The notes beneath the pieces are model-generated. The model was not told the origin of the DNA, searched no databases, and saw only the letters and a list, made by a program, of their open reading frames with translations. A program made the translations under genes and the position numbers. A stretch of DNA of 64,000 bases, from sequence record MT446396.1; one strand, 5' to 3'. This stretch comes from Escherichia virus TH22. Positions 3,888 to 63,225 of the stretch are shown in pieces. Position 1 is the stretch's first letter; each line of letters starts with the position of its first letter.

Positions 3888-5948
3888 ATGTCTGAACAAT
3901 TAAATGAACTCTTTGACAAATATATCGAAGCCTTCGGTTATCCTGTCATTAATATGAATCCAAAATACAAGGTCCCACAGGTTTGGCAATTTGGTGTTCC
4001 TGGGACCAATTCTCTTATGGCTCGTTTGATGCAATTCACGGGCAAAGAAACAGTTAAACAATATAAACGCGGCGATGCAATTGCCGAGGTATTCCTGTTA
4101 TCCGGAACTTCACACGGTCATGCTGTTCCTCTGAAGGGTGGTTTAGGTGAAAAACCTCTTGATGCAATTAACTTGATTTTTACTACAGTCTGGGAAAGCA
4201 TTAAACTAGGCAAACCTGATGTAGTCTTGTTCCGTTTCCCATCCAAAAAGATGAAAGGACAAGACCAAGCTATTATTCGTATTATGAATCGACTGATTCA
4301 AATGAAAACCAGCGGACGTTATCATGTTCTTCCGAATGCTTCTGGCCTTGGTAAAAAGAACGCTTATGTAATTATGTACAAAAGGGGTGTTGACCTGCTT
4401 TCAGTCGATGGTATGCCACCAGTCCCTGAGAAATATAAAAAAGTCGAAACTAAAGTTGGTGATGTATTCACCAATAAAGATAATGGTGCACAAGTATCCA
4501 AACAAGAAATTGCAGCCGAGATTCTGATTGACGCAGCAAACAAAAAGACCGATGCTGCTGTTGCCCAGAAAACTAAAATCAGTCGCCGAGCTATTGCACA
4601 AGCCCAGTACGCTCCAAGTGATTCCGTGCCAGAAGGTTGGGACGAAATCGATGCAGAAGCTGCTAAGTTTAGTCGACCGGCTACGGCAGAACTTATCGAT
4701 GATTATGAAGAACTGGAAATTTTTGTTCGACCTTCCGAAACGAATACTATGGCTCGTATGCGCGCAGCAGATACGGCTATGCGAGCAAATGGTGTTTGGA
4801 AAGAAGAAATTCGTGTTGAAGACTCTGACCCAATTTTTAACCGTATGCATCGCGAACTTAAACGTGCTCCAGTTGGTAGTATGAAGCAGATGCAGATTTT
4901 TGCCGAATCATGCGCAGAGATTCTTAACCTTCGCAAAGCCGCATTTATCGAAAGAAAAATGAATGATGCTCCTCCTAATGTGGATGCAGCCACTTATGCA
5001 GCCTCGCTCTGGGAAAAAGAATACACAAGCGCCATTCGTGTTGCAGTTAAAGACTTTGCTGAAGAAGCATCAGAAAATACTCTTAATTTCACAGCAGGGT
5101 ATACTGACAACCGTTTCCATTATGGTCAGCGAGAAGCAATTGCAGATTATTGTGGAGCAAACTATGCCGATATTAATAATTATTTGATGGGCAAATATTA
5201 TGAAGAAGAAGCTGAATTCCTAAATCTAGACAGAGTTGTCGAAACAATTAAGGAATTGGATTCGGCCTTTGAAATTGGACATAAGTTGCCACCTAATACA
5301 ACTCTTTGGCGTGGTCAATATTTAAACGTTCCTACATTTGATAAAATTAAGAAATCTAAATTATTTTATTTCAGGAACTATGTATCAACGTCGTTTAAAC
5401 CGATTATCTTTGGTGGCTGGGTGGCGAACGTTGCTATGGCTGCAGTTCATCAGGACTATCGTGATGGGACATCTTTCCAGGCTGATGACGAAATTGTTTT
5501 ACCAGATATGCCGGAAGCACGCCGCGACCACGTAATGATGCATGTTGGTTGGAAAATTTCTGGGGCGGACTTAATTAACGTAATTGTTCCTGGGGAATTG
5601 TCAGGCAACCCATCCGAGCAGGAAGTTATTCTTCCTCGTGGGACTGTAGTTAAGATTACCAAAATTACTGATGCTTCGTATCAAGGAAACGCGAACGTCA
5701 AAATGCTGGAAGCTGATATCCAGACTACGGACCAACTGGATGAAAATGCAGTTATCTATGATGGTGATGTGTTGATGGAAACTGGTGAGCTTGTCGTTTA
5801 TCAGGGCGAGGAAACAGAAGAGCCAGTAGAATCTGTTGACTTTGCATCGTTTGCATCCTCTGGGGTAACGAAGAAAGTCAATCAAGGTCTTGGTATTCTT
5901 GCTAGTTGTATTAATTTGGAAGCTATTCCTCCTAAATTCCTTTCGTAA
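3888..5948 (+). CDS. alt: Alt-like ADP-ribosyltransferase (capsid-packaged, injected)
   Basis: 686 aa (T4 Alt about 682 aa); position between ligase and gene 54 as in T4; C-terminal R-S-E motifs (LWRGQ, YVSTSF, EQEVILPRG). Confidence 0.85.
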   Translation: MSEQLNELFDKYIEAFGYPVINMNPKYKVPQVWQFGVPGTNSLMARLMQFTGKETVKQYKRGDAIAEVFLLSGTSHGHAVPLKGGLGEKPLDAINLIFTTVWESIKLGKPDVVLFRFPSKKMKGQDQAIIRIMNRLIQMKTSGRYHVLPNASGLGKKNAYVIMYKRGVDLLSVDGMPPVPEKYKKVETKVGDVFTNKDNGAQVSKQEIAAEILIDAANKKTDAAVAQKTKISRRAIAQAQYAPSDSVPEGWDEIDAEAAKFSRPATAELIDDYEELEIFVRPSETNTMARMRAADTAMRANGVWKEEIRVEDSDPIFNRMHRELKRAPVGSMKQMQIFAESCAEILNLRKAAFIERKMNDAPPNVDAATYAASLWEKEYTSAIRVAVKDFAEEASENTLNFTAGYTDNRFHYGQREAIADYCGANYADINNYLMGKYYEEEAEFLNLDRVVETIKELDSAFEIGHKLPPNTTLWRGQYLNVPTFDKIKKSKLFYFRNYVSTSFKPIIFGGWVANVAMAAVHQDYRDGTSFQADDEIVLPDMPEARRDHVMMHVGWKISGADLINVIVPGELSGNPSEQEVILPRGTVVKITKITDASYQGNANVKMLEADIQTTDQLDENAVIYDGDVLMETGELVVYQGEETEEPVESVDFASFASSGVTKKVNQGLGILASCINLEAIPPKFLS

Positions 5949-5951
5949 GGG

Positions 5952-5981
5952 GTTTACAAGCACAAGGAAGTGCGATACAAT
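5952..5981 (+). promoter_or_regulatory. early promoter (GTTTAC-18 nt-TACAAT)
   Basis: -35 GTTTAC and -10 TACAAT with 18-nt spacer, then GAGGA and ATG at 6013. Confidence 0.55.
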
Positions 5982-59501: not shown

Positions 59502-59575
59502 GGCCCTGTAGCTGGACGGTCAAGCGAGCGACTCATAATCGCTGGATGGTGGTTCGATTCCACCCAGGGCCACCA
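59502..59575 (+). tRNA. tRNA with CAT anticodon (Met, or Ile if lysidine-modified)
   Basis: Hand-folded cloverleaf: acceptor GGCCCTG/CAGGGCC, anticodon stem AGCGA/TCGCT with loop CTCATAA, T-arm GGTGG-TTCGATT-CCACC, encoded CCA. Confidence 0.75.
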
Positions 59576-59595
59576 AACTTATTTTAAATTATCAT

Positions 59596-59700
59596 GGCGA
59601 TAGGTATTGTAGATGCGGTTCGATTCCGTCCGGGGTAAGTGCCCTAGCATGCTTGGAGCATGAGTGACTTAATATTGGTGGTTCGAGTCCACCCCGCTAT
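59596..59700 (+). ncRNA. tRNA-like / degenerate tRNA region with two T-arm-like motifs but no canonical cloverleaf
   Basis: GCGG-TTCGATT-CCGT and GGTGG-TTCGAGT-CCACC present; no matching 7-bp acceptor stem found by hand. Confidence 0.25.
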
Positions 59701-59709
59701 GAACAAACA

Positions 59710-59785
59710 CGAGGCATAGCTCAGAAGGAAGAGCAAGGACCTTCTAAGTCCTAGGTCGTAGGTTCGATTCCTACTGTCTCGACCA
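59710..59785 (+). tRNA. tRNA-Arg (anticodon TCT)
   Basis: Hand-folded cloverleaf: acceptor CGAGGCA/TGTCTCG (one G-U), D-stem GCTC/GAGC, anticodon stem AGGAC/GTCCT with loop CTTCTAA, T-arm GTAGG-TTCGATT-CCTAC, encoded CCA. Confidence 0.8.
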
Positions 59786-59958: not shown

Positions 59959-60050
59959 CGGAACGTTCGGATATGGTCGAGATATGGCCTTTTAAAAATA
60001 TTGAGTAGCGTCAACTACTTGATAACCGGGTTCAAATCCCGGCGTTTCGT
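59959..60050 (+). ncRNA. tRNA-like RNA (92 nt) with acceptor stem, T-arm and a long internal hairpin but no canonical anticodon arm
   Basis: CGGAACG pairs with CGTTTCG; T-arm CCGGG-TTCAAAT-CCCGG; internal hairpin AGTAG-CGTCAA-CTACT. Confidence 0.3.
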
Positions 60051-60162: not shown

Positions 60163-60717
60163 ATGAAACTTTTAAAATATCTAAGCTGGATTCTGTTAGT
60201 ACCACTGGATTTCATTTCAATGATTCTGGCTGTTATCCTTGCACCATTTGTAGTGCCGTTCCATAACAAAAAGACTGGTAAGCTTCCGTTCGGATTTGAC
60301 TGGATGATGACATACGATAATCCAATTGATGGTGACCGTGGTCATGTTAAACGCTGGGAAAAAATCAGAAAATGGCCGTTAGGCGTTTACTTCCAGCGAG
60401 TGGCCTGGCTCTGGCGAAACAAAGCCTACAATTTTGCTTATCATAAGCTGGGCCGCGATTGCGATTCTAAATTCCATTATAAAGGTAATCCTGATGTTGA
60501 ATCGGGCTCCCCGGATAAAGCTCACCATGGCTGGCTCTGGATGTGGAATGATAATGCATGGGGCGTGTTCGCTTCCGTACCTTATCTTAAAGTTGGTGGA
60601 ATCACCTTTTATCTGCGCGTGTATTGCGGTTGGAAGCTCAAAAGTCTTCTGTCCCGTCCTATCCCGAAAGCTATGTTAGCCTTTCATATCAATCCCTTCC
60701 GTTTTTATAAGAACTAA
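60163..60717 (+). CDS. hypothetical protein with N-terminal transmembrane segment (184 aa)
   Basis: AAGGA Shine-Dalgarno; hydrophobic N-terminus LSWILLVPLDFISMILAVILAPFVV; Trp/His-rich body. Confidence 0.5.
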   Translation: MKLLKYLSWILLVPLDFISMILAVILAPFVVPFHNKKTGKLPFGFDWMMTYDNPIDGDRGHVKRWEKIRKWPLGVYFQRVAWLWRNKAYNFAYHKLGRDCDSKFHYKGNPDVESGSPDKAHHGWLWMWNDNAWGVFASVPYLKVGGITFYLRVYCGWKLKSLLSRPIPKAMLAFHINPFRFYKN

Positions 60718-60720
60718 TCA

Positions 60721-60746
60721 AACCCGCTCCGGCGGGTTTATTTTTA
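60721..60746 (+). terminator. rho-independent terminator (AACCCGC-UCCG-GCGGGUU + U-run)
   Basis: Hairpin plus TATTTTTA read directly. Confidence 0.8.
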
Positions 60747-60764
60747 ATATTTCTTCAAAAAGTA

Positions 60765-60812
60765 GTGTACATCCGAATTGACCGGGTGCATAATGATTCC
60801 ATACTGAGTTAC
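60765..60812 (+). promoter_or_regulatory. early promoter GTGTAC-18 nt-CATAAT with conserved leader GATTCCATACTGAGTTAC
   Basis: Same module as at 22662, 61651 and 62179. Confidence 0.6.
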
Positions 60813-60844
60813 ACACTGAATCACAAAAACTTTGGAGAAATAAA

Positions 60845-61270
60845 ATGAACTTTCTGACCCTGACCTCTGCATTTTCTGTTACCCGCATCACTAACAAAAT
60901 GGTTGCTGACGAAGTATGTGAAATCTGCATTCGTGAAGATGCACTTATCCATCTGACTTCAACCCAGATTGTTGCCATCGCTAAGTCCCTTAATTCTGAA
61001 CTGAAGGTAAACACCAAACAGTCAAAAGAATCCATCATTGAATTAATCCAAGCTGAAATGATTGAATTCCCAATTGAAGAAGTTAAAGAAGAAAAAATCC
61101 AGTCCAAATCTGGTAACGCCCGTGACATTTGCTTCCAGGCATTTGCAGAAATTGATATGAATGATAATGCAGCTCGCCGCGCTCTGATTGATGTTCTGGT
61201 TACCACCCATGATATCAAAAAGACTGTTGTTCAGTCATATGCTTCCAACTTCCGCAAAGCTCAAAAATAA
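60845..61270 (+). CDS. hypothetical early protein (141 aa), paralog of ORF 61723 in its C-terminal domain
   Basis: C-terminus NDNAARRALIDVLV...VVQSYASNFRK shared with ORF 61723. Confidence 0.5.
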   Translation: MNFLTLTSAFSVTRITNKMVADEVCEICIREDALIHLTSTQIVAIAKSLNSELKVNTKQSKESIIELIQAEMIEFPIEEVKEEKIQSKSGNARDICFQAFAEIDMNDNAARRALIDVLVTTHDIKKTVVQSYASNFRKAQK

Positions 61271-61282
61271 TTGAGAAAAGTG

Positions 61283-61316
61283 TTTTACTTCCAGGTGGGA
61301 TAGTGTATAATTATCC
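61283..61316 (+). promoter_or_regulatory. early promoter inside inverted repeat GGGATA...TATCCC
   Basis: -35 TTTTAC, -10 TATAAT at 61306-61311 flanked by GGGATA/TATCCC; leader variant CATACTGAGTTG. Confidence 0.5.
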
Positions 61317-61352
61317 CATACTGAGTTGCCAAATAAAACACTGGAGAATAAA

Positions 61353-61649
61353 ATGTTTAACGCACCTGCATGGCACGCTACCCAAGCTCAAGAAGAAAAC
61401 AAAGCAATCATTTCTGCTAAAATTGAAGCTCAACTGAATGAATTGTGCGAAACTGCTTCTGAAGAAGTTGTTGCAATCATCAAACAGTATCCTGCATCCA
61501 ACTATTCTCTGGCATGCATTAAAACAGAAATGGTTAACTTATGGCGCAAGAACAAGAAAACTTTCTTGGGTATGCAGTATCAAGCAATTGCATCTGCAGT
61601 AGTAAACATGTATGACTTTGAAGTTTATTTCCCAACTTCTGAAAATTAA
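61353..61649 (+). CDS. hypothetical early protein (98 aa)
   Basis: ATG with CTGGAG Shine-Dalgarno; the ORF-track start at 61326 lies inside the leader. Confidence 0.45.
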   Translation: MFNAPAWHATQAQEENKAIISAKIEAQLNELCETASEEVVAIIKQYPASNYSLACIKTEMVNLWRKNKKTFLGMQYQAIASAVVNMYDFEVYFPTSEN

Positions 61650-61650
61650 T

Positions 61651-61698
61651 GTGTACTTTGGAATTTGACTAAGGCATAATGATTCCATACTGAGTTAC
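61651..61698 (+). promoter_or_regulatory. early promoter GTGTAC-18 nt-CATAAT with conserved leader GATTCCATACTGAGTTAC
   Basis: Read directly; third copy of the module. Confidence 0.6.
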
Positions 61699-61722
61699 CA
61701 AATAAACAAACGGGATAATAAA

Positions 61723-62166
61723 ATGAAAACTTCAAAACTGGTTAAGTACGTTAAACTGGCATTAAACAACTCTTCTGAAGCTGAAGCACAATCCGCAGCA
61801 CGTATGTTCTTCAAACGTCTGACAGCTGAAGGTATTTCATTTAACCCGGCAGTATTTGGTATCACTCGTGGCGAAGCTGTTAAACTGGCAACTCTGGCAG
61901 GTAAAATTTTTAAAGGTCTGAATGATGGACAGGTTAAAGCAGAAGTTAAACCTACTCCTAAAGCTGAACCAAAAGCTGAGCGTAAGGCACCTAAACGCTC
62001 CGGTATGAGCAACAAAGATTTATGCTATGATATGTTCAAAACTGTTAATATGTCTAATGGTGCCGCTCGTAGGGCTGTTATTGATATGATTGTGCGTGAG
62101 TTTGGATTCAACAAAGCATCAGTTCAGTCTTATGCTTCCAACTTCCGCAAAGAATTTGAAATTTAA
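61723..62166 (+). CDS. hypothetical early protein (147 aa), paralog of ORF 60845 in its C-terminal domain
   Basis: C-terminus SNGAARRAVIDMIV...SVQSYASNFRK. Confidence 0.5.
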   Translation: MKTSKLVKYVKLALNNSSEAEAQSAARMFFKRLTAEGISFNPAVFGITRGEAVKLATLAGKIFKGLNDGQVKAEVKPTPKAEPKAERKAPKRSGMSNKDLCYDMFKTVNMSNGAARRAVIDMIVREFGFNKASVQSYASNFRKEFEI

Positions 62167-62174
62167 TTCAAAAA

Positions 62175-62226
62175 GGGGGTATACAAGCCCCCTGCTTTAA
62201 GGCATAATGATTCCATACTGAGTTAC
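62175..62226 (+). promoter_or_regulatory. terminator-like hairpin (GGGGGU...AGCCCCC) overlapping an early promoter GTATAC-18 nt-CATAAT plus conserved leader
   Basis: The -35 hexamer lies in the hairpin loop; leader GATTCCATACTGAGTTAC at 62209-62226. Confidence 0.5.
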
Positions 62227-62249
62227 ACAATAAAACACTGGAGAATAAA

Positions 62250-62555
62250 ATGAAATTCATCATCAACCTGGCGCTTGTTGACTTTGATAAAACTGGTAAT
62301 TTCGCATCTGCTGAAAATATGATTCGTAACACCAAGTTTAAAGTGCAAGTTCAACAGGCGGTAGCAAAAGAGTTCTTTACTGATAAATTAACTAACGTTG
62401 TTAATCACCTGAATGTGCAAGTTAAATTTACTCGTGAAGCAGAAACTACTGTTGCATTTGATTTTGACTGCCAATACCATGATGAATATGTTCGCCGTAT
62501 CCTGGATATTGTGTCTGATGAACTTTACTATGGTGTGCAGGAAAATAAAATCTAA
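62250..62555 (+). CDS. hypothetical early protein (101 aa)
   Basis: CTGGAG Shine-Dalgarno and ATG. Confidence 0.45.
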   Translation: MKFIINLALVDFDKTGNFASAENMIRNTKFKVQVQQAVAKEFFTDKLTNVVNHLNVQVKFTREAETTVAFDFDCQYHDEYVRRILDIVSDELYYGVQENKI

Positions 62556-62631: not shown

Positions 62632-63225
62632 ATGAATACTTTAAAGAAACTTGTTGAATTCATCCGCTCCAAACTGGGTACTGCAATGGCAAAAAACCTG
62701 TCTATTGAAGACCAATATACTCAAGCGGCGTCTACCCTGATTGACAAGATTACTGAGCTCCAGACTGCACACGTTAAGTCTGTTAATGAAGAAAAACGCA
62801 TCCGCGAATTAGCAAATGAAAAAGACCAACTCGCCGCTTCAAAAGAGCGGGAAATCCGCAAACTGATTGCTGATGGTGCTGATGTCCAGGTCCATGCTAA
62901 ACTGGGCCTCCTGTATCGTCGCACTGCTAAACAACTTCGTAAGAAGGCAGATGATTATGTTGAAATGCGTAATGAAATTAAATTGAAAGTTAAAGAGCTG
63001 GATGATTCTCGTCAGGAACTAGCTGTTAAACTGGAATACATCCGCGAAACCCGTAAGGTATCTGCCCTGGGTATTGCGACTGCAGATGATGTTGTTGAAA
63101 TCGCTGCATTGACTAAGATTGATATTGAAGACACCCTGATGCGTGTTGAAACCTTCAAAGGTCCACAGGTTGGTGTGGATACCACGTCAGCTGACATTGA
63201 AGAATACATCAATTCACTTAAGTAA
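62632..63225 (+). CDS. hypothetical coiled-coil protein (197 aa)
   Basis: AAGGAAA Shine-Dalgarno; heptad-like charged helical sequence; family assignment not possible by eye. Confidence 0.45.

Follow-up and report, generated by a model that had tools for sequence, protein, structure and literature searches.

In the hyperplastic regions of T4-type phages, recombination between promoter-early stem-loop (PeSL) cassettes exchanges entire open reading frames (ORFs) (Arbiol et al. 2010, PMC2839356; Comeau et al. 2014, PMC4122927). We analysed a 64,000-nucleotide stretch of Escherichia virus TH22 (MT446396.1; hereafter the window) and observed a pair of small genes, ORF1 and ORF2, at a locus that resembles such cassettes in being hyperplastic and in having repeated sigma-70-like promoter modules, stem-loops and indels of whole genes between the modules. 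The products of these two paralogous genes share a domain of ~50-55 residues at their C-termini (the C-domain) and carry unrelated N-terminal domains, which we call N-domain A in ORF1 (type A) and N-domain B in ORF2 (type B). Whereas PeSL swapping exchanges entire ORFs, joining one C-domain to A or B is a much older process and needs extra breakpoints within the genes themselves, which probably lay in the disordered linkers. The original prediction, made from the sequence of the window alone, had taken the pair for domain shuffling onto a common C-terminal module, possibly for interaction or targeting. We find that the C-domain is almost certainly a genuine module that ancient domain shuffling has placed in both proteins, and we give a probability of about 0.5 to the reading that it is a DNA-binding helix-turn-helix.

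T4 MotA is a two-domain early transcription factor whose C-terminal domain has a different, 'double-wing' fold. The ORF1/ORF2 family recalls MotA by analogy alone, in that its members would likewise be small early proteins in which a linker connects an effector domain at the N-terminus to a DNA-binding domain at the C-terminus. We detected no relationship between MotA and the C-domain family in sequence or fold. The closest known domains include homeodomain-like tri-helical helix-turn-helix domains such as the homeodomains of engrailed (1du0), Oct-1 POU (1pog) and ZFHX3 (2da3). The C-domain differs from these in lacking any significant profile-profile or Pfam match, in its longer helix 1-helix 2 connection, in its much lower net charge and in its restriction to phages, and homology to homeodomains is unproven. 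The solved chains of the BEN domain (Bsg25A/Elba 4x0g, BEND6 7yul, BANP 7yuk) comprise 92-133 residues with extra helices, of which only ~54 residues superpose on the query at 4-13% identity, the aligned query residues not being visible.

The similarity between the two proteins is confined to their C-terminal parts, where BLASTP aligns residues 68-138 of ORF1 with residues 71-143 of ORF2 (32/73 identical, 44%; E = 5e-18). Each C-terminal segment retrieved the other in a six-frame search of the window at E ~1e-12 and nothing else at E < 1, and a six-frame HMM search of the window found no copy beyond these two. The N-terminal halves matched only themselves in the six-frame window search, showed no similarity to each other and are predicted to adopt different folds. 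ORF1 and ORF2 match the full length of the PHROG profiles phrog_9997 (E = 1.5e-71) and phrog_18416 (E = 6.1e-92), respectively, and the cross-match between these two profiles is restricted to the C-terminal 55-70 residues (E ~5e-16). A third profile, phrog_17275 (71 aa), is essentially the C-domain alone; ORF1 (E = 3e-9) and ORF2 (E = 7e-7) match it through their C-domains only. The annotation of all three families is 'unknown function'. Searches of Pfam and NCBIfam gave no family above threshold for either protein, and weak matches to PBP_like, HrpF and CT847 were judged to be noise. The original prediction was therefore right that the C-terminal segments are related and the N-terminal halves are not.

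Type-A and type-B profile searches of a 5.8-billion-protein collection retrieved 46 relatives, mostly type-A orthologs (40-57% identity), and 78 relatives, respectively. An exhaustive HMM search of 1.84 billion representative proteins with a 30-sequence C-domain profile found ~16 genuine clusters, and 185,579 bacterial and archaeal genomes contained no C-domain relative and hence offered no prophage context. The family is thus small and confined to virulent phages. Its members are found in Gapriverviruses, in T4-like phages of Morganella and Providencia, in T4-like phages of Acinetobacter and in ~45-kb phages typified by Erwinia RF1. A structure search of BFVD yielded nothing but family members, all of them uncharacterised.

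When annotated with domain HMMs, most of the 112 retrieved proteins fell into two architectures, N-domain A plus C-domain (43/112) and N-domain B plus C-domain (42/112). Another 14 join N-domain B to an unrelated alternative C-terminal domain (type B'), seven have the C-domain alone (P0001, P0002, P0004) or behind a third unrelated N-terminus (P0044, P0050), and one consists of N-domain B alone. Comparison of the type-B' C-terminus with the C-domain gave an hhalign probability of 0.6%, and searches of the PDB and Pfam gave it no relative; a winged helix-turn-helix would be a guess. Proteins P0089-P0103, encoded by metagenomic contigs and by Yersinia phage vB_YenM_P744, carry after N-domain B a ~45-aa domain of the form TLxDVLxGLDIEPSKARRILRKxFGKRGSWxFT.... 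Natural variants show the same separability. The type-B gene of phage VR7 (VR7ORF145c; L020, 1578-1784) has undergone a natural deletion that leaves N-domain B only (68 aa), and in Providencia phage PSTRCR_127 the gene for P0001 seems to be of type A but to have lost its helix-extended loop-helix (HeH) part. The VR7 deletion spans the region from the type-B linker to e.4 and removes the homologs of window positions 62250-62555 and of e.6. Architectures and variants show directly that the domains can be separated as modules, with the C-domain standing behind A, behind B, behind a third N-terminus or alone, and B also bearing another C-terminus, and the proposed domain shuffling is borne out by them.

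Another reading is that the similarity has no modular meaning and arose locally and recently, by duplication or gene conversion. The 3' ends of the shared segment, at 61229-61259 and 62122-62152, are identical at 30 of 31 nucleotides (GTTCAGTC[A/T]TATGCTTCCAACTTCCGCAAAG), and 9 of 10 codons in this tract are the same, against ~4 expected from the codon usage of the window (P ~9e-4). Such an origin is nevertheless hardly credible, as the coding parts of the two C-domains agree at only 58% of their nucleotides overall and the two types form distinct orthologous groups in distant phages, with C-domains that cluster by type. These orthologous groups rule it out as the whole story and leave a short 3' conversion tract possible at most. 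The near-identical 3' stretch may stem from gene conversion over a short tract, or may serve as a substrate for recombination; the Erwinia RF1 pair has no comparable identity. Type-A orthologs (40-57% identity to ORF1) occur in the RF1-like 45-kb phages of Erwinia, in Morganella MP1 and in Acinetobacter T4-like phages, and type-B orthologs in Morganella MP1 and the RF1-like phages. C-domain identities are 68% for A-A, 52% for B-B and 45-47% for A-B comparisons, a grouping by type and not by phage, so that the A/B split predates the divergence of these phage lineages. The shuffling is thus ancient and not a recent local event.

Every locus with a type-B gene has a type-A gene within ~1 kb on the same strand. 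The pair occurs in three lineages: the Gapriverviruses, Morganella MP1, where the order is B then A, and the RF1-like phages (four contigs). In the RF1-like phages it comes first in a small operon that runs rightward, flanked on one side by the leftward terminase/portal operon and on the other by a leftward operon with a DUF3987 (primase-like) gene. RF1 itself has an HNH-type endonuclease gene between the type-A and type-B genes (L003, 2127-2630), and the related contig L006 has a 65-aa ORF in this place. Gaprivervirus genomes each gave three tblastn places. The third paralog is a stand-alone C-domain of 71-75 aa, represented by VR25_277 (VR25, KP007361.1; L018, 3935-4162), which lies between gene 52 and motA with its stop codon 3 nt before the motA start, ~97 kb from the A/B pair and outside the window. 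Its promoter-leader is nearly identical to that of ORF1.

This arrangement would suit a C-domain that served for homo- or hetero-oligomerisation, linking the A, B and stand-alone paralogs, with the stand-alone copy as a cap or competitor. The constant presence of A next to B, the existence of the stand-alone copy and an A-B identity that is marginally higher within a phage than between phages (47% vs 45%; permutation p = 0.05) all favour it. However, the Acinetobacter T4-like phages carry type A only, and little co-variation was seen: any sign that the A and B C-domains evolve in concert or co-vary as heterodimers is marginal at most. We regard oligomerisation as an unlikely function of the C-domain.

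To examine the fold, AlphaFold2 (AF2) models were built with family alignments of 32 (ORF1) and 35 (ORF2) sequences and reached mean pLDDT values of 82 and 81. Both models predict the C-domain as a three-helix bundle, with block means of 84-94 over the helical core and, in ORF2, 10-residue block means of 91-94 over residues 101-140. The predicted bundle has the helix 2-turn-helix 3 arrangement of the homeodomain-like fold. The PDB profile search with the C-domain gave a sole match at E < 0.01, the ZFHX3 homeodomain 2da3 (E = 0.0014 with 7 sequences and 0.006 with 30). In this alignment helix 2-turn-helix 3 is in register (KrvVQSYaSnYRk vs KRVVQVWFQNTRAR) and Y/W48, N/N51 and R/R53 are matched. 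The homeodomain signature L16, F20, W48, F49, N51, R53 corresponds to C, F, Y, A, N(D/Y), R of the C-domain in a marginal alignment whose helix 1 register was chosen by hand.

Helix 3 is nearly invariant across the family (V-Q-S-Y-A-S-N-[YF]-R-K). C9 and F13 in helix 1 and V42, Q43, S44 and Y45 in helix 3 are invariant, and S47 and R50 nearly so. If V, Y and A are buried, as the homeodomain alignment suggests, the exposed residues would be Q, S, S, N, R and K, a composition typical of a recognition helix. The best structural matches of the C-domain are enriched in DNA-binding domains, namely binders of double-stranded DNA. The nearest sequence outgroup in our library, P0111, consists of four tandem repeats (hhalign probability 89%, E = 2.5e-6) that match HTH_29, HTH_Tnp_1 and HTH_28 just below threshold, and it points independently to a helix-turn-helix. 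The basic character of each C-domain, and of ORF2 as a whole with its linker, also favours DNA binding.

Several observations weigh against a DNA-binding helix-turn-helix. Homeodomain homology is unsupported, with an hhalign probability of 6.9% against eight homeodomain sequences, and 67 family members gave no match to Pfam Homeodomain (PF00046) at E <= 1 and one weak match to HTH_28. We therefore rejected true homeodomain homology as unproven and describe the predicted C-domain as homeodomain-like in fold, not as a homeodomain. Each C-domain is mildly basic (pI ~9), but its net charge of only +2 is far below that of classical homeodomains, and ORF1 is acidic overall. No candidate binding site was identified: the aligned upstream regions of the RF1-like phages showed promoter-like conservation only, with no convincing shared operator-like motif. 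Finally, VR7 is viable although its type-B gene has lost the C-domain, and in culture a phage can therefore do without at least this copy. Our literature searches, aimed only at PeSL cassettes and DUF2786, found no paper on the C-domain protein family.

The same fold could instead serve protein-protein interaction, with helix 3 docking a conserved host protein (e.g. RNA polymerase, a sigma factor, or a nucleoid or defence protein) and so delivering different N-terminal effectors to one target. We consider this doubtful. The invariant side chains that helix 3 would expose (Q, S, S, N, R, K) are not hydrophobic but small, polar and basic, DNA-binding domains are over-represented in the best structural matches, and the nearest sequence outgroup is helix-turn-helix-like. 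A C-domain that binds RNA, such as host RNAs or the conserved early leaders, would accord with the resemblance of N-domain A to the Rho N-terminal HeH motif, with the position of the genes among repeated conserved transcribed leaders and with the basic ORF2 linker. RNA is a very improbable target, however, given that the structural matches of the C-domain are double-stranded-DNA binders and that no Rfam family or structured RNA was found in the leaders.

We therefore return to the helix-turn-helix reading, for which the following mechanism is proposed. The 50-55-residue C-terminal module, joined through a disordered linker to N-domain A or B, would adopt a tri-helical, homeodomain-like helix-turn-helix fold with helix 3 as the recognition helix, assisted by the basic residues just before helix 1. 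As the recognition helix is nearly invariant, all members should address the same kind of site. They would be directed, the stand-alone copy upstream of motA included, to one nucleic-acid target, probably DNA, and the N-domains would supply differing effector or oligomerisation functions. The suggestion of a shared interaction or targeting domain is compatible with this evidence, and our leading guess sharpens it to a shared DNA (or other nucleic-acid) target. We infer a DNA-binding, regulatory or nucleoid-directed role.

ORF1 is a 141-aa, slightly acidic protein (pI 5.7). Its AF2 model contains three beta strands, the HeH helices H39-49 and H61-74, a low-confidence linker at residues 81-87 and the three-helix C-domain. 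N-domain A appears to resemble Rho_N/SAP HeH motifs at the level of fold only: its Rho_N/SAP-type scores in Pfam are all below the gathering thresholds, and a PDB profile search with it gave no significant match. One public record labels a type-A ortholog as 'rho-N domain-containing'. In a longer type-A form (P0039-P0046) the loop between helices 2 and 3 carries an insertion, and an acidic tail is present.

The 147-aa product of ORF2 is strongly basic (pI 10.0, net charge +13). Sub-threshold matches of N-domain B to DUF2786 (PF10979) fall at the same profile positions in 14/35 type-B members and in 6/6 type-B' proteins. None reaches the gathering threshold of 23.9 bits (best scores 10.9-16.3 bits for the type-B' members listed individually; best E among the 35 type-B members 0.019), so the resemblance of N-domain B to DUF2786 is consistent but sub-threshold. 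A PDB profile search with N-domain B gave no significant match, and a literature search on DUF2786 found no paper describing a function. The ORF2 linker is rich in Lys, Pro and Ala and histone-H1-like; the public record with the 'rho-N' label names a type-B ortholog as 'H15 domain-containing', which probably reflects this linker. Its KAEP repeats vary between strains, with two in the window and four in phage EAWsc9 (L001, 4652-5119).

Positions 60700-62250 of the window are 95-98% identical to Gapriverviruses including VR25, VR20, VR7, SP18 and CJ20, and on this identity the window belongs to a Gaprivervirus (Straboviridae, Tevenvirinae; T4-like, VR25/VR7/SP18 group). In VR25 the homologs of ORF1 and ORF2 are flanked by tRNA genes and a homolog of T4 e.6, in a hyperplastic region of small hypothetical genes. 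The corresponding features of the window are listed in Table 1.

Table 1 Coordinates of ORF1, ORF2, their predicted domains and neighbouring features in the window.
Feature	Position	Strand	Description
tRNA-Met and tRNA-Arg	59502-59785		
DUF7338 gene	60163-60717		E = 1.4e-62
Promoter-leader module of ORF1	60766-60844	+	TGTACA, 17 nt, CATAAT, conserved leader, GGAG, ATG (promoter scan and alignment)
ORF1	60845-61270	+	141 aa
N-domain A (aa 1-76)	60845-61072	+	Predicted three beta strands and HeH (Rho-N/SAP-like) motif
Acidic linker of ORF1 (aa 77-88)	61073-61108	+	Residues 81-87 with pLDDT <50
C-domain copy 1 (aa 89-141)	61109-61267	+	Predicted three-helix bundle H92-100, H108-122, H126-140
98-aa ORF (phrog_27242)	61353-61649		Between ORF1 and ORF2
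Promoter-leader module of ORF2	61651-61722	+	TGTACT, 17 nt, CATAAT at 61675-61680, conserved leader (direct reading and alignment)
ORF2	61723-62166	+	147 aa
N-domain B (aa 1-62)	61723-61908	+	Three helices predicted by AF2 (H3-15, H19-36, H49-59), DUF2786-like
Basic Lys/Pro/Ala-rich linker with KAEP repeats (aa 63-92)	61909-61998	+	Residues 71-88 with pLDDT <50
C-domain copy 2 (aa 93-147)	61999-62163	+	Predicted three-helix bundle H97-105, H113-127, H131-145
101-aa ORF	62250-62555		
e.6 homolog	62632-63225		

Both genes start at ATG with GGAG-type ribosome-binding sites upstream, and the promoter scan and alignment place the same module 5' of each: TGTAC[A/T], 17 nt, CATAAT and a leader of the form GATTCCATACTGAGTTAC...AATAAAATG. 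The alignment comprised five modules of the window and the VR25 module upstream of the stand-alone paralog. This agrees with the earlier statement that each gene lies behind a copy of a conserved promoter-leader module. The predicted promoters are sigma-70-type and T4-early-like, and early expression of ORF1 and ORF2 is inferred from them. Rfam identified no known RNA family or structured RNA in the leaders. In the RF1-like 45-kb phages the promoter 5' of the type-A gene, AATGGGTGTACTATTATCCCATC (L006, ~5940-5975, with equivalents in L003, L010 and L013), resembles the window module GGGATAGTGTATAATTATCCCATAC (61296-61325), and in both an inverted repeat brackets the -10 element.

Stem-loops are predicted at 60720-60739 and 62174-62193. 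The 98-aa ORF has its own promoter-leader module and is absent from VR26, EAWsc9 and other close relatives. The DUF7338 gene, which is followed by the first of these stem-loops, is carried by VR7 and EAWsc9 and is absent from VR25. Presence of both genes thus varies among relatives that are 95-98% identical. The locus therefore shows the repeated predicted promoter and stem-loop modules and the cassette indels among close relatives that define PeSL cassettes, and the indel of the 98-aa ORF is of the cassette type attributed to PeSL recombination. A tRNA T-arm-like string, CCGGGTTCAAATCCCGG, lies 3' of the tRNA-Arg gene at ~60026-60042; neither ARAGORN nor Rfam called a tRNA or other RNA there, and it could be a tRNA remnant or the end of a small stable RNA.

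Small helix-turn-helix-type domains and modular phage early genes are of a kind already known, and the shuffling described here is fairly ordinary for phages. What is new is an uncharacterised, phage-restricted module, predicted to be homeodomain-like, together with its architectures, the conserved A/B pair and the third copy beside motA. Nothing previously known is overturned, and the finding is of moderate to low interest unless experiments reveal that the members address a common DNA target or have a regulatory role. It is improbable, though conceivable, that the three Gaprivervirus paralogs (HeH plus C-domain, DUF2786-like plus C-domain, and C-domain alone co-transcribed with motA) form a phage-specific regulatory set that competes or cooperates at the same DNA sites in the host or phage genome. 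If true, T4-like and RF1-like virulent phages would possess a layer of early gene control, or of nucleoid remodelling, that has so far gone unrecognised. A phage lineage of true homeodomain relatives is a more remote possibility. The locus offers a clean example of shuffling at the level of domains, beyond that of genes, in hyperplastic regions. These regions of T4-type phages hold dozens of small early genes without assigned function, and for three such 'hypothetical proteins' our analysis provides a testable hypothesis, namely that they may share one DNA target to which they bring different effector domains.

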